Source: a virus. Taken from it: 64,000 nucleotides of DNA. The stretch lies in the IMG/VR virus record IMGVR_UViG_3300017991_000060, positions 53,866 through 117,865 of that record, one strand, 5' to 3'. The translations under genes were made by a program, and so were the position numbers. Below are positions 55,131 to 63,985 of the stretch, one piece after another. The notes beneath the pieces are model-generated. The model searched no databases and was not told where the DNA came from. It saw nothing but the letters and a program-made list of their open reading frames with translations. Each line of letters starts with the position of its first letter. Positions within the stretch are counted from its first letter, which is position 1.

Positions 55131-55589
55131 ATGGCACGTAAGCGGTGGAAACACTCCAGCCACAAGTACCGGGCGGAGTACATGGCGTGGGCCAACATGC
55201 ACCGCCGGTGCTACGGCGGCCATCCGGTGGACTGGCAGTACCGCGCGCGGGGGATCGCTGTCTGCGCGCGGTGGGCCTCGTTCGACGCCTTCATGGATGA
55301 CCTTGGACCGCGGCCGACGAAGGGGCACACACTGGAACGGATCGACAACGAGGGCGACTACGCCCCCGAGAACTGCCGCTGGGCCACCTGGGGGGCGCAG
55401 CACAACAACAAGCGCGGCGTCGTGAAAGTCACGCTGGACGGGGAGACGCTCTCGCTCGCCCAGTGGGCGCGGCGCATCGGGATGAAGCCCGGAACCCTCC
55501 GGTGGCGGGTGTCGCGGGCGAGGGCCAACGGTGGCTCGGCAGAGGACGCCGTGCGGAAGGCCGTCGAAGACGCCGGGGGCGTGTTGTAG
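55131..55589 (+). CDS. HNH endonuclease
   Basis: WANMHRRC...RGIAVCARW..FDAFMDDLGPRP...TLERIDNEGDYAPENCRWAT...NNKR plus C-terminal DGETLSLAQWARRIG HTH; GGGAGG SD before ATG 55131. Confidence 0.92.
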   Translation: MARKRWKHSSHKYRAEYMAWANMHRRCYGGHPVDWQYRARGIAVCARWASFDAFMDDLGPRPTKGHTLERIDNEGDYAPENCRWATWGAQHNNKRGVVKVTLDGETLSLAQWARRIGMKPGTLRWRVSRARANGGSAEDAVRKAVEDAGGVL

Positions 55590-55602
55590 GCGCGTCGGTC
55601 AG
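55587..55602 (+). repeat. Class A motif: TAG-N6-CGGTCAG at HNH stop
   Basis: TAG GCGCGT CGGTCAG G. Confidence 0.75.
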
Positions 55603-55627
55603 GCGGCCGGGCCGCGGTCCAAATGCG

Positions 55628-55668
55628 AAAAAAGCGTGGCCGCACCGCCTTGCGTTGACGGTGCGGCC
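55628..55668 (-). terminator. Intrinsic terminator for the minus-strand early operon
   Basis: Perfect 10-bp stem 55638-55647/55659-55668, then ACGC-TTTTTT on the minus strand. Confidence 0.65.
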
Positions 55669-55758
55669 TGGTATGGTGGTGAGAGTCGCTCCTGGCGATG
55701 CTGGATCATGCGCGGCCCGCGCCCCCGAACGCGGGCCGTCGCTCTGTACAGGGCGCAT

Positions 55759-56028
55759 CTACGTGCGCCCGCTTGCACGAAACCCATCCACGATGGTCTC
55801 GATCCTGAACGCCCAGCCCCGGCCGTTCAGGATGCGGAGGGCGAGCTCCTTCGGACGCCGCGCGAGGTCCGGTCGCACGTCGTGTTTGGCGATCTCGACA
55901 TCCTCCTCCCCAGCGCGGCGGAACTTCGCGGCCATCTTCCGCGCGTCCTTCAAGGAGGTGTACCAACGGGAGCGGTCGTTCGTCTCGTCGGAGGGATCGA
56001 GGCCGGGGTCTACCTGGTAGAAGTGCAT
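55759..56028 (-). CDS. Hypothetical protein
   Basis: MHFYQVDPG..., 89 aa, ATG overlapping the upstream TGA. Confidence 0.7.
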   Translation of the reverse strand: MHFYQVDPGLDPSDETNDRSRWYTSLKDARKMAAKFRRAGEEDVEIAKHDVRPDLARRPKELALRILNGRGWAFRIETIVDGFRASGRT

Positions 56029-56504
56029 CACACCCCCACCTTCCCCGCGCCTTCGCACGTCGGGCACCGGACCTCCCCGGCCCCGCGGCACTCGTGACAG
56101 ATCGCCCCGTCGTGGCCGCCCTCGCCGCTCCCGGAGCACGAGGTACACATCACCGCGCCGGTGCCGCCGCAATCATCGCAGTCAGTCTCCGGCAAGTACT
56201 CGTCGTCCGCTCCGCACTTGCACCCGGTCCGCATCCCGCAGCGGTAGCACTTCTTCTGGAAGAGCTTCGCGCCCATGAGCGGTCCGAACACCCAAGCGGC
56301 CGGGAGGCGGTCGGAGCGCCCCAGGGCAAAGATGCACGAGAGGACCCCGGCGATGAAGTCCGCCTCGCTCTTGAGGCTTCCGGCGTCGGCCCGCTGATTC
56401 CCGGCCGCCTCGGCGTACTCGAAGATGGCCTCGCACTGGGCCTCGGTGAGCGGCTCTACACCTTCGCGGGCGAGCATCTCCCGCGCGAGTCTGTCCAGGT
56501 CCAT
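56028..56504 (-). CDS. Protein with DnaJ-type CxxCxGxG zinc finger
   Basis: CDDCGGTG, CTSCSGSG, CHECRGAG, CPTCEGAG; no J-domain. Confidence 0.8.
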   Translation of the reverse strand: MDLDRLAREMLAREGVEPLTEAQCEAIFEYAEAAGNQRADAGSLKSEADFIAGVLSCIFALGRSDRLPAAWVFGPLMGAKLFQKKCYRCGMRTGCKCGADDEYLPETDCDDCGGTGAVMCTSCSGSGEGGHDGAICHECRGAGEVRCPTCEGAGKVGV

Positions 56505-56821
56505 CAGTCGCTCCCTTCCGCGGCCGTCGCCGCCCTCTCGGCCTCGCACTCGGCGCACAGCTTGTCGCCGGGGAGCACGTACTCCCCGCAGTCGTCGCAC
56601 CGATGGCAGAACCCCCGGTGCGTGTAGTCGCACTTCTCGCAGTACTCCTCGCGGACGAAGGTGATCTCCTCCAGGGCGGCGAGGGCCTCCCTCCGCGCGT
56701 CGTCGAGCTCCCGCGCGTCCTCGGCGCGCGAGGCTCGGTCCAGGATGTCGGCGGCCTTGATGAGCGCCTCCACCGTGTCGTCCACGTCGAACCACTGGCC
56801 CAGGTGATATGCTCCGGCCAC
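56504..56821 (-). CDS. Cys-rich hypothetical protein
   Basis: GTG start after GAGGAGG; CEKC, CHRCDDC, CAEC. Confidence 0.7.
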   Translation of the reverse strand: MAGAYHLGQWFDVDDTVEALIKAADILDRASRAEDARELDDARREALAALEEITFVREEYCEKCDYTHRGFCHRCDDCGEYVLPGDKLCAECEAERAATAAEGSD

Positions 56822-56822
56822 G

Positions 56823-57026
56823 CTACACCTCCTCCCCGGCCGCCAGTCGGCGGTACCGCTTCTCCGTTCCCTGGTCATCCCAGCCGGTGCTCTGGCCAGG
56901 CACGATCACGAGGTACCCGTACGCGGCGCGCACCTCGACTCCGAACCCGTCCTCATCGGCCGCCGCCCGCACGGCGCGGGCAGCGGCGGAATCGACCGGG
57001 CGCACGATGAAGAATCGCTCGCTCAT
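56823..57026 (-). CDS. Hypothetical protein
   Basis: 67 aa, GAAGGAG SD. Confidence 0.7.
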   Translation of the reverse strand: MSERFFIVRPVDSAAARAVRAAADEDGFGVEVRAAYGYLVIVPGQSTGWDDQGTEKRYRRLAAGEEV

Positions 57027-57039
57027 CGCCCGCTCCTTC

Positions 57040-57222
57040 CTACTCCCCCAACGTGTCGAATATCGGGGTTCCGTCCTTGCGTTCGCCGTGGGGGTTGTCG
57101 CACACGGGGTCCTCCCACCCCTCCTCCGAGGCGAAGATGGGCTCGGCGTCCTCGTGCGGTTTGCACTCCGCGCAGTACGCCGCCCCGTCGTGCGTCCAGC
57201 CCACGATCTCCCATGCCTTCAC
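57040..57222 (-). CDS. Small acidic Cys/His protein
   Basis: YCAEC...CDNPH; GTG after GAGGAG. Confidence 0.7.
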   Translation of the reverse strand: MKAWEIVGWTHDGAAYCAECKPHEDAEPIFASEEGWEDPVCDNPHGERKDGTPIFDTLGE

Positions 57223-57236
57223 TTGTCCGCTCCTCT

Positions 57237-57252
57237 CTGACCGGCGGGCCTA
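57237..57252 (-). repeat. Class A motif: TAG-N6-CGGTCAG-RR-AGGAG
   Basis: TAG GCCCGC CGGTCAG AG AGGAG. Confidence 0.88.
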
Positions 57253-57546
57253 CAGCACCCGCAAACCCAGCTTCTTCGCCTTGCGCTTCGCCTCCCGCCT
57301 CCGGCACGCGAGGGCGGCCTGGTACACGTCGTCGTACGAGCCGACGCTTCGGAGCGTCTCCTCGATGCGCTTGATGGTGGCCTTCGTCTGTTCGACCCGT
57401 TCCGTCATGCCGCGCTTGGCGAACCGTTCGCGGCGGTCGGCCAGCCGACAGAGACGCGCGGCAGTGCGGGCGCACTGGGCTTTGCTCCACCGCTTATCCA
57501 ATGGCTTCGTGTTCACTGGCTTCCTGGGCCTCTTCCGCTTGCTCAT
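57250..57546 (-). CDS. Highly basic hypothetical protein
   Basis: MSKRKRPRKP...RRREAKRKAKKLGLRVL, 98 aa. Confidence 0.7.
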   Translation of the reverse strand: MSKRKRPRKPVNTKPLDKRWSKAQCARTAARLCRLADRRERFAKRGMTERVEQTKATIKRIEETLRSVGSYDDVYQAALACRRREAKRKAKKLGLRVL

Positions 57547-57890
57547 CGCTCGCTCGTTCCTTCCTGGTGGGCGCGAGGCCCCCCTCCGGGGGATTGAGAC
57601 CTGATGATCCCGTCCTTGATCGCGCCCTCCACGATGGTCTGGCGCTCCTCCTCGGTGAGCTCCCCCCACCAGTGGGGGGCCTTGTCATCGTTGTCGGGGC
57701 TCCGGCGGCCGTCGGGGTACTCGACGGTCCCGTTGGAACCGTCGCCCCCGAGGGGAGTCGGGTTTTTCGCTTCGCTCAAGGCGCGCCAGAGCTTGCGGTA
57801 GAGGTCATTCCCCACGCCTGGGATGCACTCGGCCACCTCGTCGGCGGTCCAGTACTCCAGCTCGGCGGGGCACTTGGTGGGTTCGCGCAT
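57543..57890 (-). CDS. Hypothetical protein
   Basis: ATG 57890 after GAAGGAG; 115 aa. Confidence 0.7.
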   Translation of the reverse strand: MREPTKCPAELEYWTADEVAECIPGVGNDLYRKLWRALSEAKNPTPLGGDGSNGTVEYPDGRRSPDNDDKAPHWWGELTEEERQTIVEGAIKDGIIRSQSPGGGPRAHQEGTSER

Positions 57891-57908
57891 CGTCTCTCTC
57901 CTTCCTTC

Positions 57909-57924
57909 CTGACCGAGCGGCCTA
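57909..57924 (-). repeat. Class A motif
   Basis: TAG GCCGCT CGGTCAG GA AGGAAGGAG. Confidence 0.88.
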
Positions 57925-58977
57925 CGAGGCCACCCGTGCTTCTGCCACCACCGCGGGGAGCGGCGGCAGCTCGATCTCCTCACGCCAGCCCGGCCGGAAC
58001 ACATCGAGGAACCCTTCCAAGAGGGACCGGCGCGGGTACAACTTGATGGAATACCTGGAGTCCGGCCCTACCTCGACCAGCCCCTCCTCGTCTGTCTCCG
58101 CGGCCTTGGGGTCCTTCCAGACCTCCAAGAGATTCCGGCCGATGATCGCGCGCTGGGGCCGCTTCCAAGCGCGGGCGTTCTTCTTCGTGGGGCGGAGGTA
58201 CTCCCTCTTCAGGAACCGCGACAGCGCGCGGCCCAACTTCGTGGTGGCGGTGTCATGCGTGGACACCTCGACCAGCCCGAACCCGATCAGCGGGTTGTAG
58301 TCTTTCCGGTGCTTGTCCACTGTCTTTGGCTTCGGTGAGTACGCCTCGTTCGCCATACGGAGAAGGAGGGTGCGCGACGCTTGGGGGAGCCGGAAGCGGA
58401 TGGCGTCGAGCTCCTCATCTGAGATGAGGTCGCCACGCACCGCCTCGACCTCGGCCTCGGCCTTGGCGAGCGCCTCTTCCGCGCGGGCGAGGGCGGCCGG
58501 GAGGTCGGAGAGCTTCTGGAGGGCGACGGCGTGAGCCTTCGCCGCCGCCACCGGCGAGTGGAACCCGCGCTCGGTGATCTGGAAGAGGTGAACGTACGGC
58601 TTGAGCGCGGGGCGGCCGTATACGACGTGCCGCAAGCGGCTCGCGGCTTCGCGGAACGCGCGCTTCGCCTCGCCGTACTCCACGAGGACCTTCTGCGCGT
58701 GCGGCGTGGGATCGCCCCACCCCTTGAGGGAGCGGCATCGGTTCTTCGCCTTCTCAGCCGCCCGGAGGGCCGTGCGCGCCTTCCGGTACTCCTGGTCGTA
58801 CTGGAGGAAGAATGGCTCGTCGAGGGCCGCCTGGAGGTCCCTACCGGCCTTGGCTGCGGCTTCCAGCGAGCCGTGCGTTCGGATGGCGAGGTCGAGTTCG
58901 GAGCGGATGTTCGCAACCGTCTGTCTTCGCCACTGTGCACCTTGCTCGGCGTGTTTGAGGTCCTCTTTCGTTTGCAT
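57922..58977 (-). CDS. Hypothetical coiled-coil protein
   Basis: 351 aa, Ala/Arg-rich helices, GGGAGG SD. Confidence 0.75.
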   Translation of the reverse strand: MQTKEDLKHAEQGAQWRRQTVANIRSELDLAIRTHGSLEAAAKAGRDLQAALDEPFFLQYDQEYRKARTALRAAEKAKNRCRSLKGWGDPTPHAQKVLVEYGEAKRAFREAASRLRHVVYGRPALKPYVHLFQITERGFHSPVAAAKAHAVALQKLSDLPAALARAEEALAKAEAEVEAVRGDLISDEELDAIRFRLPQASRTLLLRMANEAYSPKPKTVDKHRKDYNPLIGFGLVEVSTHDTATTKLGRALSRFLKREYLRPTKKNARAWKRPQRAIIGRNLLEVWKDPKAAETDEEGLVEVGPDSRYSIKLYPRRSLLEGFLDVFRPGWREEIELPPLPAVVAEARVAS

Positions 58978-58995
58978 CGCAGCCTCCCTGGTCTT

Positions 58996-59118
58996 TCATG
59001 TCCGGCCGTTGAGGTCCTCCCTGGTGAGCGAGCTCTCCGCGAGGAGGTCCCCCTCGACCTCGTGTTCGTTGAGGACCTCCTCGTCCCCCCTACCGCAGAT
59101 GTGGCATTTCCTCGGCAT
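58996..59118 (-). CDS. 40-aa hypothetical peptide
   Basis: MPRKCHICGRGDEEVLNEH...; AAAGGAGG SD. Confidence 0.55.
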   Translation of the reverse strand: MPRKCHICGRGDEEVLNEHEVEGDLLAESSLTREDLNGRT

Positions 59119-59132
59119 AGCACGCCCTCCTT

Positions 59133-60278
59133 TCATGCCCCCCGGATGGGGTGGCAAAACTCCGGCCCGTGGTCCTCATCGACAGAGGCGACGAGCGCCT
59201 CCCAGTGCTCCGGCTCCGGCTCGGTGCGGTCGGTCCAGTCGGGCGCGCGGAGCGCCTTCTTCGCGCGCTTGAGAGCGGCGGCCGTCGCGGTGTCCTCGGC
59301 TTTCTCGGCTTCCTCGATCTCCTTGCGAAGCCGGGCCACCTTGTTCGCGTATTTCCCCCAGTCATCAGGAAGGAGCCCGGCGCGTACGGCGAGCCCCTTC
59401 CAGTCCGTCGGGAGGAGCCCCTCCGCTACCAAGCGCGCGCGCCAGCTCCAATTGCGGGGCTTGGTGTCCTCGGGTCCCTTGTCAGCCTTCGTCCGGGTGA
59501 GCCCCAGGCCATTGCATTTGCTCAGGCCGTGCTTGCCCGTCTCGGCGCGGTACTCGATGACCGCGGCGAGGAGGGCGAGGTCGGGGTGCCGCCGCGCGAG
59601 GTCAAACACTTCCTCGGGGCGCGCGGCCGGGCAGAAAAAGCACGCCGACTTCGGGCAGCACCGGGCAGAGATGCTACGCTCGAACTCGTCGCCCATCTCC
59701 TTGCGGATGATCGCGATGAGGTCGGGCCGCTCCAGGCCCCAAACGGACTGGAGGGGGTACCAGAACTCCCAACGGTTCTCGCCTTTCCCCTCGGCTTGCC
59801 GCTTCTCCTCCCGCTTCGCCCAGGCACCGAACCGCTTGCGGTCCGCGGGGGAGTTGTCGTACCCGATGGCGCGGATGACCCTACGTCCCTCGCGGAGCGC
59901 ACGCTTCGCTGGCTTCCAGGCGAGCACGTCCGCGTCGAGCGGGCCATGCTTCCACTTGATGGAGCACGAGGACGGCCCAAAGGAGAGGCCGGGGAGGGTG
60001 TCGTTCGCGAGGCAGTTCCCGTGCAGCGTCGTGTACGGCGCGCGTTTCGGCTCGTAACGAACGACCGTCACGCCAGGGAACCCCACGTCCTTGCACCAGC
60101 GGTGCATGATCCCGACGGTGACGTACGTGTCCGGCGACTCGCTCCCCACGTCCGCGAAGATGATCCGGTCGGGGCGGATGCCCTCCCGGTGGAGGAGGAC
60201 GAGCATCGCGGTTGAGTCCACGCCCGCCCCGTACGAGACGACCAGCGGTCCGTCGCACGGCAAAAGGTCCCTACCCAT
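59133..60278 (-). CDS. PP-loop (PAPS reductase-like) protein 1
   Basis: VVSYGAGVDSTAML, IFADVGSESPDTY, SCSIKWK, IGYD, WYPL, PKSACFFCP. Confidence 0.88.
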   Translation of the reverse strand: MGRDLLPCDGPLVVSYGAGVDSTAMLVLLHREGIRPDRIIFADVGSESPDTYVTVGIMHRWCKDVGFPGVTVVRYEPKRAPYTTLHGNCLANDTLPGLSFGPSSCSIKWKHGPLDADVLAWKPAKRALREGRRVIRAIGYDNSPADRKRFGAWAKREEKRQAEGKGENRWEFWYPLQSVWGLERPDLIAIIRKEMGDEFERSISARCCPKSACFFCPAARPEEVFDLARRHPDLALLAAVIEYRAETGKHGLSKCNGLGLTRTKADKGPEDTKPRNWSWRARLVAEGLLPTDWKGLAVRAGLLPDDWGKYANKVARLRKEIEEAEKAEDTATAAALKRAKKALRAPDWTDRTEPEPEHWEALVASVDEDHGPEFCHPIRGA

Positions 60279-60522
60279 CGCTCTCCTCCTCGGCGCGGAC
60301 CAGGCCCGCGCACAGTTGGCAACGCCCATCGTCGTCGAGGTCGTCGGCGGTCCCGCACTCGCGGCAGTACCCATCGTACGCGCCGGGCGCTTGGCACTCG
60401 CCCTCCCCGTCGCACCCGGCCGCCTCGCACTCGTGGCAGAACGCCGGGACGGTCCAGTCGTCAGAGATGGCGATCTCCATGCAATCCCGGCACCGGCAGT
60501 TCGTGTACCCGCTCTGGGCCAT
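60271..60522 (-). CDS. Small Cys-rich acidic protein
   Basis: CRCRDC, CHEC, CREC, CQLC in 83 aa. Confidence 0.72.
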   Translation of the reverse strand: MAQSGYTNCRCRDCMEIAISDDWTVPAFCHECEAAGCDGEGECQAPGAYDGYCRECGTADDLDDDGRCQLCAGLVRAEEESDG

Positions 60523-60537
60523 CCCTCGCGCTCCTTC

Positions 60538-60553
60538 CTGACCGGCGCGCCTA
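60538..60553 (-). repeat. Class A motif
   Basis: TAG GCGCGC CGGTCAG GA AGGAG. Confidence 0.88.
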
Positions 60554-60718
60554 CACGCGCCGGAGCTCTGACCAGCGACCCTCGATGATGAGAGGGTCGC
60601 GGGAGGTGTTGATCGAGGCGGCGTACTCGGCCGCCGCCTCGCGGGTGGGGAACACCCGTTGCGCTCCCGGCGGGAGCTCGTCGTACGGCACGAACGGGCA
60701 CCCTCTCCACGTCTCCAT
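60551..60718 (-). CDS. 55-aa hypothetical protein
   Basis: METWRGCPFVPYDELPPGAQRVFPTREAAAEYAAS...; GAGGAGG SD; not in the ORF track. Confidence 0.65.
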   Translation of the reverse strand: METWRGCPFVPYDELPPGAQRVFPTREAAAEYAASINTSRDPLIIEGRWSELRRV

Positions 60719-60733
60719 GCTTTCCTCCTCTCC

Positions 60734-60749
60734 CTACGGGTTCGGTCAG
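60734..60749 (-). repeat. Class B motif: CTGACCG-A-N4-GTAG before SD
   Basis: CTGACCG AACCC GTAG GGAGAGGAGG, preceded by the GCCGCC-GC-GGCGGC hairpin. Confidence 0.82.
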
Positions 60750-60763
60750 GCCGCCGCGGCGGC

Positions 60764-61321
60764 CTAGTCCTCCTCCGCGTCGCAGTTCGGGCAGAGCCCA
60801 CAGTCGAGCTCTTCCCCGCACTCCTCGCACTCGCCGCAGTCCGGGCACTCCCCGTCGTCGTCGAGCTCCGCCCCGCAGACTTCGCAGACGCCGCACTCGT
60901 CGTCGTACTCGCACGCGCCCGAGGCTTCGAGCTCGGCCCACCGCTTCTCCGCCTCGCGCTCCTCGGCTTCCAGGCGGACGATGAGCGTCGTCAGCGGCTC
61001 GCCCTCGGGGAGCGCGGCGCACGGTCCCTCCAGGACCACGTAGACGTATCCCCCCGGCGAGTACGGACGCCTCCACCGGAGGGTCCACCCGGTGAGCGCA
61101 TCCCATCCCTCGTCGATGCACCGGCGGATGGCTTCGCCCACGCGCCGGAGCGCCTCCTTCCGCGTCTCGACGCTGGGCGGGGTGCCCTTCTCGCTCACCC
61201 GGCCGGGCACGCAACCGGGGAGCCCCTCCTCGACCTCGGACGCGATGAGTCGCGCGCCCCAGGCATCCTCGACCGTCGGCTCCAGCCCGAACCAGTGCTC
61301 CGTCACGTTCTCGCTACCCAT
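60764..61321 (-). CDS. Hypothetical protein with Cys/acidic C-terminal repeats
   Basis: CEYDDECGVCEVCGAELDDDGECPDCGECEECGEELDCGLCPNC. Confidence 0.75.
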   Translation of the reverse strand: MGSENVTEHWFGLEPTVEDAWGARLIASEVEEGLPGCVPGRVSEKGTPPSVETRKEALRRVGEAIRRCIDEGWDALTGWTLRWRRPYSPGGYVYVVLEGPCAALPEGEPLTTLIVRLEAEEREAEKRWAELEASGACEYDDECGVCEVCGAELDDDGECPDCGECEECGEELDCGLCPNCDAEED

Positions 61322-61348
61322 CGCTCACCTCCTGGTGGTTTCTCGCTT

Positions 61349-61406
61349 GCCCTCGTCAGGGCCGGTTCCACCGGCCGACGCGGGGGCGCATCCCCGCGTT
61401 TCGGGC
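61349..61406 (-). ncRNA. Type II hammerhead self-cleaving ribozyme
   Basis: GCCC-GAAA-CGCGGGG-AUGCGC-CCCCGCG-UC/cut/-GGCCGG-UGGAA-CCGGCC-CUGACGA-GGGC: all core nucleotides (GAAA, GUC, CUGANGA), 8-bp stem III, 6-bp stem I and open 4-bp stem II. Confidence 0.92.
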
Positions 61407-61409
61407 TGG

Positions 61410-61709
61410 CTACAGCCTCCCGCCGCTCGCGTGCTTCGCGGCGACGACCATCTCGTACGTCGCGCGGAGGGCGGGTGTCTCCGCGTCGCTCAGGTTCGCG
61501 AGGACCTCGACCACGAGGCCGCGGATCGCCGCGCGGTACCGCTCCCCCAGGGCTTCCTCGACCCGTTGCACGTCGTCGAGGGAAAGCGTGTACTCCTCGC
61601 CGCACTCCGGGCACGTCTCCCGCTCGTAATCGACGAGGACCGCGAGGCCATCCAGCGTCGCCCCGCACTCGTGCGCCTCGCCGCACCGCTCACACGTCAC
61701 GCTCACCAT
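61410..61709 (-). CDS. Zn-ribbon hypothetical protein
   Basis: CERC...CPEC; ATG after GAAGGAG. Confidence 0.72.
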   Translation of the reverse strand: MVSVTCERCGEAHECGATLDGLAVLVDYERETCPECGEEYTLSLDDVQRVEEALGERYRAAIRGLVVEVLANLSDAETPALRATYEMVVAAKHASGGRL

Positions 61710-61722
61710 CGCTCGCTCCTTC

Positions 61723-61738
61723 CTGACCGGGCGGCCTA
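61723..61738 (-). repeat. Class A motif
   Basis: TAG GCCGCC CGGTCAG GA AGGAG. Confidence 0.88.
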
Positions 61739-62023
61739 CAGCGGCTTCCAGCCCCCGCCCGTGTGGTACTCGATGTCCGTGCATCCCCAGCCGCCGCGCC
61801 CCCAGTCGTCCAGGGGCTCGAACCCGGAGGCGCGCCCGTCGAGGTCCACGAAGAACCCCTCCCCGTAGACCTCCCCGTCCGCGTCCTTCAGGCGGAACCG
61901 CTCCGCGTCCGGGTGTGTTGCGATGTCCTCACCGGCGAGGGTCGCCCCCCGCGGCCCGACCAGTCCGACCCGTTGGTCCGACTCGATGTAGTCTCGGGTG
62001 ATGACCCAGGCGTACTTGCTCAT
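61736..62023 (-). CDS. Hypothetical phage protein
   Basis: FRLKDADGEVYGEG...FEPLDDWG...GCTDIEY; 95 aa. Confidence 0.75.
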   Translation of the reverse strand: MSKYAWVITRDYIESDQRVGLVGPRGATLAGEDIATHPDAERFRLKDADGEVYGEGFFVDLDGRASGFEPLDDWGRGGWGCTDIEYHTGGGWKPL

Positions 62024-62268
62024 TCTTCCCTCCCCTCGTGGTCGATGCGGTGGCTCCAGCGGCGCTCGTGCTTGTTGAGGTACTCCAAGGTCTCCGGGGC
62101 GCAGGACCCCGGACCGTCGAAGAGACGCCGCACTTCCTCCTCGTGGTCCTCGTCGAGCTTGAAGCAGTAGAAGTTCCCCCGGATGGGTCGGCCGATGGAG
62201 ATGATCCCGGCCCCTTGGCAGACCACATAGATGAAGCCGGGGTGCGTCTGCGGGTTGAGCGATTGCAT
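62020..62268 (-). CDS. Hypothetical protein
   Basis: 82 aa, GAGGAGG SD. Confidence 0.7.
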   Translation of the reverse strand: MQSLNPQTHPGFIYVVCQGAGIISIGRPIRGNFYCFKLDEDHEEEVRRLFDGPGSCAPETLEYLNKHERRWSHRIDHEGREE

Positions 62269-62281
62269 GTCCTTCCCTCCT

Positions 62282-62297
62282 CTACAGGTTCGGTCAG
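62282..62297 (-). repeat. Class B motif
   Basis: CTGACCG AACCT GTAG AGGAGG. Confidence 0.82.
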
Positions 62298-62307
62298 GGC
62301 CGGGCGG

Positions 62308-63477
62308 CTAGCTCGGCCCCGCGTTCTCTCCGAAGGCTCCGGCCGGGAGCTTCCACGCCCCCTCCGGTACGATGATCCGTCCGCGGTACTGCTCGCGCCC
62401 CGCGGCGGCGGCGATCCGTTCGGCCGCGCCACCGAGGCACGCCTGGTACACCTCGCCCCGGTCGGCGCGCTCCCTGAGCGTCTCCGAACGGTGGAGGGTG
62501 CCCTTGAACCGCTTGCCCTTGCACTTCGGGCAGCGGTCCGTCCCGGAGGCGAAGCCCGCCCCGCACTTCTTGCACCGCGTGCTCCAGTGGTCTACGAACG
62601 TGTCCTCCAGGGTGGCGATTGCCTGGAAGCGGTCGGGGTAAATGTGGCGGAGGCTCGCCCACTGATTCGGGGAGCCGAAGATGCAAGCGGCACACGAGAG
62701 GCGGCCCCAGCCCAGGCGGTACGCGGCATGGGGGGCGACGCGCCACCGCTCGATGATCGCCCACACCTCGGCCTCGGCCCAGGCGTGCACCGGACGCCAG
62801 CGGTCGATGTGCCTACGCACCCGCTTCCCGTTGCGCGAGTCGGCCCGGTCGGGCTCGAACACCTTGTACTTCGCCCGGTTCGAGCTCTCCTCGGCGCGCT
62901 CCCCGGTGACGGTGAGCGTCCGGCCCCGCTGGAACCGGGGGTCCTTGATGAGTGCCTTGTCCGCGGCGTCGATCTTCAGGAGGGCGGAGCACCACCGGGC
63001 GCGGAGGTCGGCCGACACCTGGGGGAAGCAGAAGCGGGTCCCGACCTTCGCCCGCTCGCCACCGTGGCGGAGCACCTGGACCTTGCCGCCTACCACTTGC
63101 TCCCAAGCGTACCCGGCCGACTTCGCATCCCGCTTCAGGAGCTCCCGCTCGAACCCGCCCTGCTTCCACTGGAAGAGGACCCGCACTCCGAAGGCGTCGC
63201 CCAGGGCTCGGACGTACGACGGGACATCGAGCCAGTCGAAGAGGGCGCTACCTTCTCTCCCGTCGATGCAGTGGTGCCACAGCTCGATCTTCTCCCGAGG
63301 CACGCCCAGCTCCAGGAGGTACAGGAAGCACGCCAGCGAGTCCTTCCCGCCGGACGTGCAGACGACCACCCGGTCGTACGTCCGGGGGTCGCACGGGAGC
63401 GCCGCGACGTTGTGCTGGGGGGCGCTCGTCGGCGCGGCGAACTTCGGCGCGCAAGGCGCGCAGCTCGGAACCTTCAT
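62308..63477 (-). CDS. PP-loop (PAPS reductase/DndC-like) protein 2 with Zn-ribbon insert
   Basis: VVCTSGGKDSLAC, RWCSALLKI, TGERAEESSNRA, WRPVHAWAEAEVW, AYRLGWGRLSCAACIF; CKKC...CPKC insert. Confidence 0.9.
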   Translation of the reverse strand: MKVPSCAPCAPKFAAPTSAPQHNVAALPCDPRTYDRVVVCTSGGKDSLACFLYLLELGVPREKIELWHHCIDGREGSALFDWLDVPSYVRALGDAFGVRVLFQWKQGGFERELLKRDAKSAGYAWEQVVGGKVQVLRHGGERAKVGTRFCFPQVSADLRARWCSALLKIDAADKALIKDPRFQRGRTLTVTGERAEESSNRAKYKVFEPDRADSRNGKRVRRHIDRWRPVHAWAEAEVWAIIERWRVAPHAAYRLGWGRLSCAACIFGSPNQWASLRHIYPDRFQAIATLEDTFVDHWSTRCKKCGAGFASGTDRCPKCKGKRFKGTLHRSETLRERADRGEVYQACLGGAAERIAAAAGREQYRGRIIVPEGAWKLPAGAFGENAGPS

Positions 63478-63490
63478 CGTCCTCTCCTCT

Positions 63491-63506
63491 CTGACCGGCG
63501 GCCCTA
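63491..63506 (-). repeat. Class A motif
   Basis: TAG GGCCGC CGGTCAG AG AGGAG. Confidence 0.88.
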
Positions 63507-63956
63507 CAGCGAAGCGAGCCGCCGGTGGATGTTCTCGTTGTGGACCTTGACGGCCTCGTCGCACTTCTCCAGGAGCTCCGCGGCCTTGCACCCGTACCGC
63601 TCGTGCAGCGGCGTGTACCCGGACGTGAGCCGCCCGTGCGCGGTCCGCCCCCCGTAATCCTCCTCCGACCTCCGGATGGCCGCCGCGAAGCCCGCGCCCG
63701 CCACCGTGGCGAGGAGGCACCCGTGCGACAGCCCGTAGAGCTCGGCCGCCGGGCTGTCCGGGCTGTTGAACCCGTCCCGGAAGCACTGCACCAGGAGGGC
63801 CTTCGCGGCGTGAATGCTCCCCCGGTCGCCGCGCTCGATGCGGAGCGCCTCGCTCCAGAGGCGCGGCCCGGTGTGGTCGTGGCACGAGAAGGCGTACTCG
63901 ACGGCCTGGTACGCCCGGTTGATGATCTCGCGTTCCTTCCTCGTGTACTCGCTCAT
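63504..63956 (-). CDS. Hypothetical protein
   Basis: 150 aa, GAGGAG SD. Confidence 0.75.
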   Translation of the reverse strand: MSEYTRKEREIINRAYQAVEYAFSCHDHTGPRLWSEALRIERGDRGSIHAAKALLVQCFRDGFNSPDSPAAELYGLSHGCLLATVAGAGFAAAIRRSEEDYGGRTAHGRLTSGYTPLHERYGCKAAELLEKCDEAVKVHNENIHRRLASL

Positions 63957-63969
63957 CGCTCGCTCCTCT

Positions 63970-63985
63970 CTACGTGATCGGTCAG
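63970..63985 (-). repeat. Class B motif
   Basis: CTGACCG ATCAC GTAG AGAGGAG. Confidence 0.82.

Follow-up and report, generated by a model that had tools for sequence, protein, structure and literature searches.

Toward the right end of an uncultured phage genome (117,865 bp), a gap of some 91 to 94 nt between two small genes reads like a complete self-cleaving RNA, which raises the question of whether the transcript cuts itself there and what such a cut would do to the two messages. Coordinates refer to the window, i.e., the 64,000-nt stretch of this genome that was analyzed, unless they are marked as genome positions. According to the ORF list, the minus strand carries every gene in this part of the window, and the element shares the coding strand of the two co-directional genes that flank it (Table 1), in a region where local GC reaches 76%. 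The 99-aa product of the upstream gene gave weak matches to both Zn_ribbon_8 (Pfam) and phrog_1315 and has one homologue, P0003, which is 71% identical and encoded on a 562-nt contig; identical proteins are encoded on contigs other than that of P0003. For the 185-aa product of the downstream gene, no family match and no homologue except the protein itself were found. Two diverged PAPS-reductase-like genes (phrog_424), also on the minus strand, flank the small-gene block on either side. The stretch from 60.2 to 64 kb contains nothing resembling a sigma-70 promoter, a type that the host may not use, or an intrinsic terminator, which makes the block compatible with a single transcript. Reading the gap as a promoter was discarded because it has no consensus promoter, as was reading its hairpins as an intrinsic terminator because no U run follows either of them.

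Table 1. Features of the ribozyme locus and related sites, in order of transcription (window positions; the last line refers to another viral contig)
Feature	Position	Strand	Basis or remarks
PAPS-reductase-like gene	62308-63471	-	phrog_424, E 3.6e-30
Upstream gene, 99 aa, zinc-ribbon-like	61410..61709	-	ORF list; stop TAG 61412-61410
Complete type II hammerhead	61406-61349	-	Sequence, fold, descriptor, covariance model
A61407 and stem II 3′ strand GCCC (11.4-11.1; 61406-61403)	61403..61407	-	Sequence, subclass conservation
Core G12 A13 A14 A15.1 (GAAA)	61399..61402	-	Sequence, models
Stem III hairpin, A15.1:U16.1 plus 7 G-C pairs, loop AUGCGC	61378..61399	-	Fold, descriptor
Predicted cleavage site C17 (61377) / G1.1 (61376), within GUC	61376..61377	-	Position relative to core
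Stem I hairpin GGCCGGU-GGA-ACCGGCC	61360..61376	-	Fold, descriptor, model
Core C3 U4 G5 A6 C7 G8 A9 (CUGACGA), G5 = 61357	61353..61359	-	Sequence, models
Stem II 5′ strand GGGC (10.1-10.4; 61352-61349) and flanking A61348	61348..61352	-	Sequence, model
Leader remainder, with SD AGGAGG (61333-61328) 6 nt before ATG	61322..61347	-	Sequence
Downstream gene, 185 aa, Cys-rich C terminus	60764..61321	-	ORF list; ATG at 61321
PAPS-reductase-like gene	59133-60209	-	phrog_424, E 3.7e-13
Other gaps of the block (55587-63985)	63506-63469, 62310-62266, 61738-61707, 60766-60716, 60553-60520, 57924-57890	-	
Pistol ribozyme and type II hammerhead	L008 548-617 and 1434-1501		

In the direction of transcription, the gap reads TAG, CCA, GCCC, GAAA, stem III, GUC, stem I, CUGACGA, and GGGC, followed by 15 nt, AGGAGG, 6 nt, and ATG. 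The preliminary description had recognized here a complete type II hammerhead that begins 3 nt past the upstream stop, and the core, the three helices, the MFE fold, a motif descriptor, and a covariance model (R1, see below) all agree with this assignment, with CCA between the TAG and the first strand of stem II. The presence of every conserved core position was borne out, as C3 U4 G5 A6 N7 G8 A9 and G12 A13 A14 are all matched (CUGACGA at 61359-61353 and GAA at 61402-61400). The assignment of G5 to position 61357 held by sequence reading, as did that of the predicted GUC cleavage position to 61377/61376, since C17 falls at 61377 relative to the core. The length given for the leader of the downstream message, 55 nt to the ATG at 61321, was also correct; the distance from the end of the ribozyme to the SD had been put at about 20 nt and is 15 nt.

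Three helices surround the core according to the fold, the descriptor, and the model. Loops close stems I and III, and stem II is open; the descriptor assigns the helices 7 bp (I), 4 bp (II), and 8 bp (III). Within stem III, 61398-61392 pairs with 61385-61379 around a 6-nt loop, giving 8 bp when A61399:U61378 is counted. This last pair corresponds to A15.1:U16.1 and is followed by a residue other than G at position 17 (C61377). Stem I is formed by 61376-61370 and 61366-61360, 7 bp around the loop GGA; loop 1 can also be read as a pentaloop, U-GGA-A, whose conserved 5′ U is U61370. The closing pair G10.1:C11.1 is present in stem II (G61352:C61403), and A61348 faces A61407 across the end of this stem; A61407 is the conserved flanking A and a candidate tertiary-contact base. 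Folding of the gap reproduces precisely this three-way junction as the MFE structure (-43.2 kcal/mol, z = -3.0).

To match the descriptor, a sequence needed the core, A15.1:U16.1, and H17, with 4 bp or more in stems I and III and 3 bp or more in stem II. Searching the 117,865-bp genome with it returned a single match, the candidate hammerhead, and 400 dinucleotide-preserving shuffles made in 300-nt blocks, which keep local GC, yielded none, even with a lenient descriptor; together these results argue that the candidate did not arise by chance. Base composition gives a chance estimate of about 1e-7 per genome for stems this long, which is small even across the many gigabases scanned and thus points to a real motif. 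At gathering thresholds, Rfam searches were empty both for the window and for the remainder of the genome. The Infernal and Rfam check proposed in the preliminary description was successful in part: with permissive filters, RF02276 matched over its full length (E = 1.6e-5 per genome), at a score of 30.4 bits that does not reach the 37-bit cut-off. We ascribe the low score to the type of hammerhead involved, with a 4-bp stem II, a 7-bp stem I capped by a triloop, and no pseudoknot. Around 28 copies of this pseudoknot-less type at five other phage loci all remained below 37 bits with RF02276 (best, 36.1 bits), so the threshold shuts out the whole subclass and not the candidate specifically. As for further ribozymes elsewhere in the genome, R1, the descriptor, and Rfam revealed no second hammerhead, and no other Rfam ribozyme was found at gathering score. 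A hammerhead-like sequence on the plus strand (genome 43689-43747; L123 4089-4147) was rejected as a ribozyme since its core is broken, with GACA for GAAA and a deletion in CUGANGA; it scored 12.6 bits against R1 (E = 0.37).

A pattern scan of IMG/VR retrieved more than 116 loci with type II-shaped sites (approximately 125 pattern-hit loci in all), many of which pass Rfam with 40 to 67 bits. The sites fall into two groups. Those of the canonical group, which corresponds to the hammerheads reported by Perreault et al. 2011 (PMC3088659) and to the Rfam consensus, have a stem II of 2 to 3 bp, a loop I of 6 to 14 nt, and a pseudoknot of 4 to 10 bp with the tail directly after stem II, whereas those of the pseudoknot-less group have a stem II of 4 bp (rarely 5) and a 7-bp stem I closed by 3 to 4 nt. 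Pseudoknot-less copies often occur four to nine times per fetched locus (L073, L098, L070, L095, and L119). The candidate is a member of this pseudoknot-less group. R1 was built from 52 distinct pseudoknot-less copies from other phages, none of them from the genome of the candidate, and has 15 annotated pairs. In a search of the whole genome, only the candidate matched R1 significantly; it scored 59.0 bits (E = 5.5e-15) and has standard pairs at all 15 positions. Among the 71 R1 matches, which come from 33 sources and range from 39.5 to 69.1 bits, the candidate ranks 36th. In the R1 alignment, 99.2% of the cells pair, and both partners vary in 13 of the 15 pairs. Covariation in the subclass scored 0.84, whereas shuffles gave 0.18 and slid partners no more than 0.12, in a set that is partly selected for pairing and an alignment that is fitted to R1. 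At loci obtained with patterns that left stems I and III unconstrained (L119 and L124 to L129), the stems differ in sequence and are still fully paired. G10.1:C11.1 is invariant in all 71 subclass members, and the candidate carries all of the subclass-specific letters outside the core. Its particular stem II, GCCC/GGGC with C:G at 11.3/10.3, is rare (6/71).

Many pseudoknot-less copies have a tail of the form N′UCAG after stem II (four copies at L119, and L064, L088, L098, L073, L105, L029, L070, and L049). This tail complements C3 to N7 of the core, and N′ covaries with N7 (CUGAUGA..AUCAG versus CUGACGA..GUCAG). Such complementarity implies an alternative hairpin sequestering the core, which could be an off-state or a structure of the 3′ product. 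The candidate has no N′UCAG tail. On a separate note, in a 61.8-kb viral contig (L008), a type II hammerhead (54.9 bits) and a pistol ribozyme (63.6 bits) are separated by about 800 nt. Different classes of self-cleaving ribozymes are known to associate in phage-like regions.

The location of the subclass relative to genes is stereotyped. In 41 of 48 cases, the distance from the end of an upstream ORF of at least 40 codons to stem II is -2 to +4 nt, and in 40 of 53, an SD followed by the start of an ORF of at least 40 codons lies 11 to 46 nt after the ribozyme. With its stop codon at +3 nt from stem II and its start codon 27 nt downstream, the candidate has an intercistronic position typical for the subclass. 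In about 20 of 48 members at loci L011 to L119, the stop codon directly adjoins stem II or extends into it. The stem II strand and the conserved A would then lie beneath a terminating ribosome, and folding may in this way be coupled to translation.

The candidate is the only copy in its genome, and the adjacent gaps of the block carry a different motif. Six of these gaps contain either TAG-N6-CGGTCAG-RR-AGGAG or CTGACCG-A-N4-GTAG ahead of the SD, that is, one heptamer in opposite orientations. The heptamer is not overrepresented across the window (15 found versus 18 expected), but it keeps a fixed arrangement within the gaps. The idea that CGGTCAG might be related to hammerhead tails was dropped, as these sites have no hammerhead core.

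[quoted passage not shown] This proposal failed, as the 3 bp available in the candidate are at background level and no enrichment is seen in 54 members of the subclass. For loop I against the 5′ flank, the best complement was 2.65 versus 2.84 in mismatched loop/flank combinations; for loop I against the 3′ tail, it was 3.39 versus 3.36. In known type II hammerheads, loop I forms a pseudoknot, usually of at least 4 bp, with a tail directly 3′ of stem II. This pseudoknot is absent in the candidate, in which the best complement is 3 bp and lies 10 nt past stem II.

What is conserved outside the core of the subclass is an A just 5′ of 11.4 (50 of 52 copies), a U at 1.7 right after a 6-bp stem I (49/52), a purine facing it at 2.7 (R2.7; 47/52), and a purine 3′ of stem II (36/52). 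The flanking A is kept also where it lies outside the stop codon. Dufour et al. [quoted passage not shown] The type II equivalents of the two partners are U1.7 and the 5′ flanking A, here U61370 and A61407, with A61348 opposite the latter. As U61370 and A61407 occupy the published partner positions, we infer that the canonical U/A contact, with loop 2 opened, probably joins stems I and II in the subclass. In the candidate, loop 1 (U-GGA-A) does not have the penultimate pyrimidine of the UNmYN motif, its penultimate residue being A.

Predicted folding also bears on the products of cleavage. Stem III alone (-16 kcal/mol) is kept at the 3′ end of the upstream product in the predicted fold, and stem I alone reaches -12 kcal/mol. 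The free 55-nt leader is heterogeneous, with an MFE frequency of 0.09 and a GCCCU/AGGGC pairing that competes with part of stem I. The downstream message may plausibly have a hairpin-protected leader, which for this reason would not be one defined structure. When 239 nt of context were folded, the thermodynamic optimum was a competing fold based on a perfect 10-nt complement on the minus strand between 61409-61400, at the 5′ edge of the ribozyme (CCAGCCCGAA), and 61291-61282, in codons 11 to 14 of the downstream ORF (UUCGGGCUGG). The latter segment is transcribed about 57 nt after completion of the ribozyme and lies within translated sequence. A regulatory role of this complement as an anti-ribozyme pairing was rejected, since the complement is marginal (p ~0.04) and not a trait of the subclass (4 of 54 members at p ≤ 0.05).

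Relatives of the locus itself were also sought. The GenBank phage collection contained no match to it, no related viral contig was found with either flanking protein as query, and a metagenome scan with an alignment of the upstream protein was equally negative. A search with the PAPS-reductase gene returned one distant contig of lower GC (L002), in which the 9.9 kb examined hold no hammerhead. None of the approximately 125 pattern-hit loci is related to the phage of the candidate. No orthologous gap was found in any of these searches, which leaves covariation to the level of the subclass. DNA contigs of runs X4 and X5 are identical over the element, and those of runs X6 and X7 do not cover it, the nearest diverged contig starting at 61426; natural variation over the element was consequently not obtained. 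Among public runs, no RNA run containing the locus was found.

The reading that we favor, with a probability of roughly 75%, is that the element is a functional type II hammerhead that would cut the transcript of the small-gene block and uncouple the 99-aa and 185-aa cistrons. Its sequence and predicted fold suggest that self-cutting very probably occurs at 61377/61376. In the proposed mechanism, a transcript would run through the small-gene block at the right end of the genome, and stems III and I, which are local hairpins, would fold first during transcription. Stem II would close next, as GGGC pairs back to GCCC, and docking would proceed through a reverse-Hoogsteen pair of U61370 with A61407, on a 6-bp stem I closed by U-N3-R. 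The RNA would then cut itself after C61377. The upstream message would finish with the stem III hairpin (-16 kcal/mol) and bear a terminal 2′,3′-cyclic phosphate, and the downstream message would begin with a 5′-OH at G61376, followed by the 55-nt leader that bears the ribosome-binding site. Both the stability and the translation of the two cistrons could in this way be uncoupled.

The least probable alternative is a chance resemblance, in which two GC-rich intergenic hairpins happen to be flanked by hammerhead-like letters. Stems form easily at 76% local GC, and the score lies under the Rfam cut-off; the empty shuffles, the R1 E value, and the compositional estimate nevertheless leave this explanation effectively refuted, and the element moreover lies on the right strand, in the right position, and with the letters specific to the subclass. 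A more serious, if still unlikely, possibility is that the element is a real hammerhead by descent that is slow or inactive at cellular Mg2+, so that its two hairpins are only passive RNA structure. [quoted passage not shown] The former would be in keeping with the missing pseudoknot and with a short pentaloop that lacks the published penultimate pyrimidine; disruption of the tertiary contact lowers rates 20- to >100-fold (Perreault et al., PMC3088659). The competing optimum in the 239-nt context would fit trapping. However, the local hairpins would form ahead of transcription of the competitor, and the candidate retains all conserved letters and an intact core. In addition, the stem lengths, the A flank, and U1.7 (94 to 96%) are kept across unrelated phages and in multicopy arrays, and such subclass-wide conservation argues for selection on the active fold.

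A rather remote alternative accepts an active ribozyme with a role beyond message splitting, either as a mark of a mobile cassette or in coupling cleavage to translation. In the coupling variant, with the UAG 3 nt upstream, a ribosome halted there would occupy the stem II strand and prevent folding. The occurrence of the subclass in unrelated phages next to unrelated genes speaks for another role, as does the stop codon that abuts or overlaps stem II in most members, and the candidate itself is a one-off insertion in a block whose remaining gaps carry a different motif. A mobile cassette is disfavored by the surroundings of the downstream gene, where no repeat, integrase, or cassette boundary was seen. 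A wider proposal can be derived from the same layout. Because the upstream stop codon contains or adjoins the docking A and the stem II strand, the ribosome and the active fold would exclude each other, which would make cleavage dependent on translation. That the pseudoknot-less hammerheads form a distinct subclass under the Rfam threshold, docked by the U/A contact with loop 2 open and cleaving in a translation-dependent manner because ribosome and fold are mutually exclusive, is as a whole a speculative view to which we give little weight. A functional hammerhead that splits the transcript remains the preferred reading.

The candidate shares its permutation, the invariant core, the GUC site, and the G10.1:C11.1 pair with the type II hammerheads of Perreault et al. 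2011 and RF02276. It also resembles prophage hammerheads in lying between co-directional phage genes on a polycistronic RNA; those flank single genes, cut polycistronic RNAs of about 2 kb in vitro, and cleave in E. coli (PMC3088659). Cleavage in Desulfovibrio vulgaris has been shown for three type II hammerheads situated close to phage-like genes (PMC8782182), and the purpose of such ribozymes for the flanking genes is still regarded as open (PMC6765202). Unlike most type II hammerheads, the candidate has no pseudoknot between loop I and the 3′ tail, and it departs from the RF02276 consensus in its stem II (4 bp versus 2 to 3) and loop I (3 to 5 nt versus 6 to 14). With the copies at L119, L073, L098, L070, L095, and L125, it has in common the architecture, the A flank, U1.7, R2.7, and the order of stop, ribozyme, SD, and start. 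In contrast to many phages with pseudoknot-less hammerheads, in which four to nine copies are found, its genome has a single copy, and the flanking genes are unrelated. As in the motif of type I and III hammerheads (sTRSV, Schistosoma, and CChMVd; PMC2632901), loop 1 has a 5′ U, an A lies 5′ of the 11.x strand, and a purine:A opposition is found at the end of a 4-bp stem II. Unlike in that motif, "loop 2" is open, its ends running into the flanking mRNA, and the contact is proposed from conservation.

A comparison can also be drawn with synthetic insulators of the RiboJ type, in which a hammerhead just upstream of the ribosome-binding site provides a defined 5′-OH end whatever lies upstream. 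RiboJ is a type III design derived from sTRSV with an engineered downstream hairpin, whereas the candidate is natural, belongs to type II, and has no such hairpin.

Intergenic phage hammerheads have been known since 2011, and the candidate is a clean new example. Since hammerheads between phage genes were described then, it adds little when taken alone. The wider meaning lies in the subclass to which it belongs, a recurrent pseudoknot-less form that the RF02276 threshold misses and of which R1 recovered 71 copies at 39 to 69 bits. Phage annotations are accordingly expected to undercount such ribozymes. Finally, the stereotyped layout of these elements, together with the conserved U and A, would allow cheap mutational tests both of pseudoknot-free docking and of the purpose of cleavage between phage genes.
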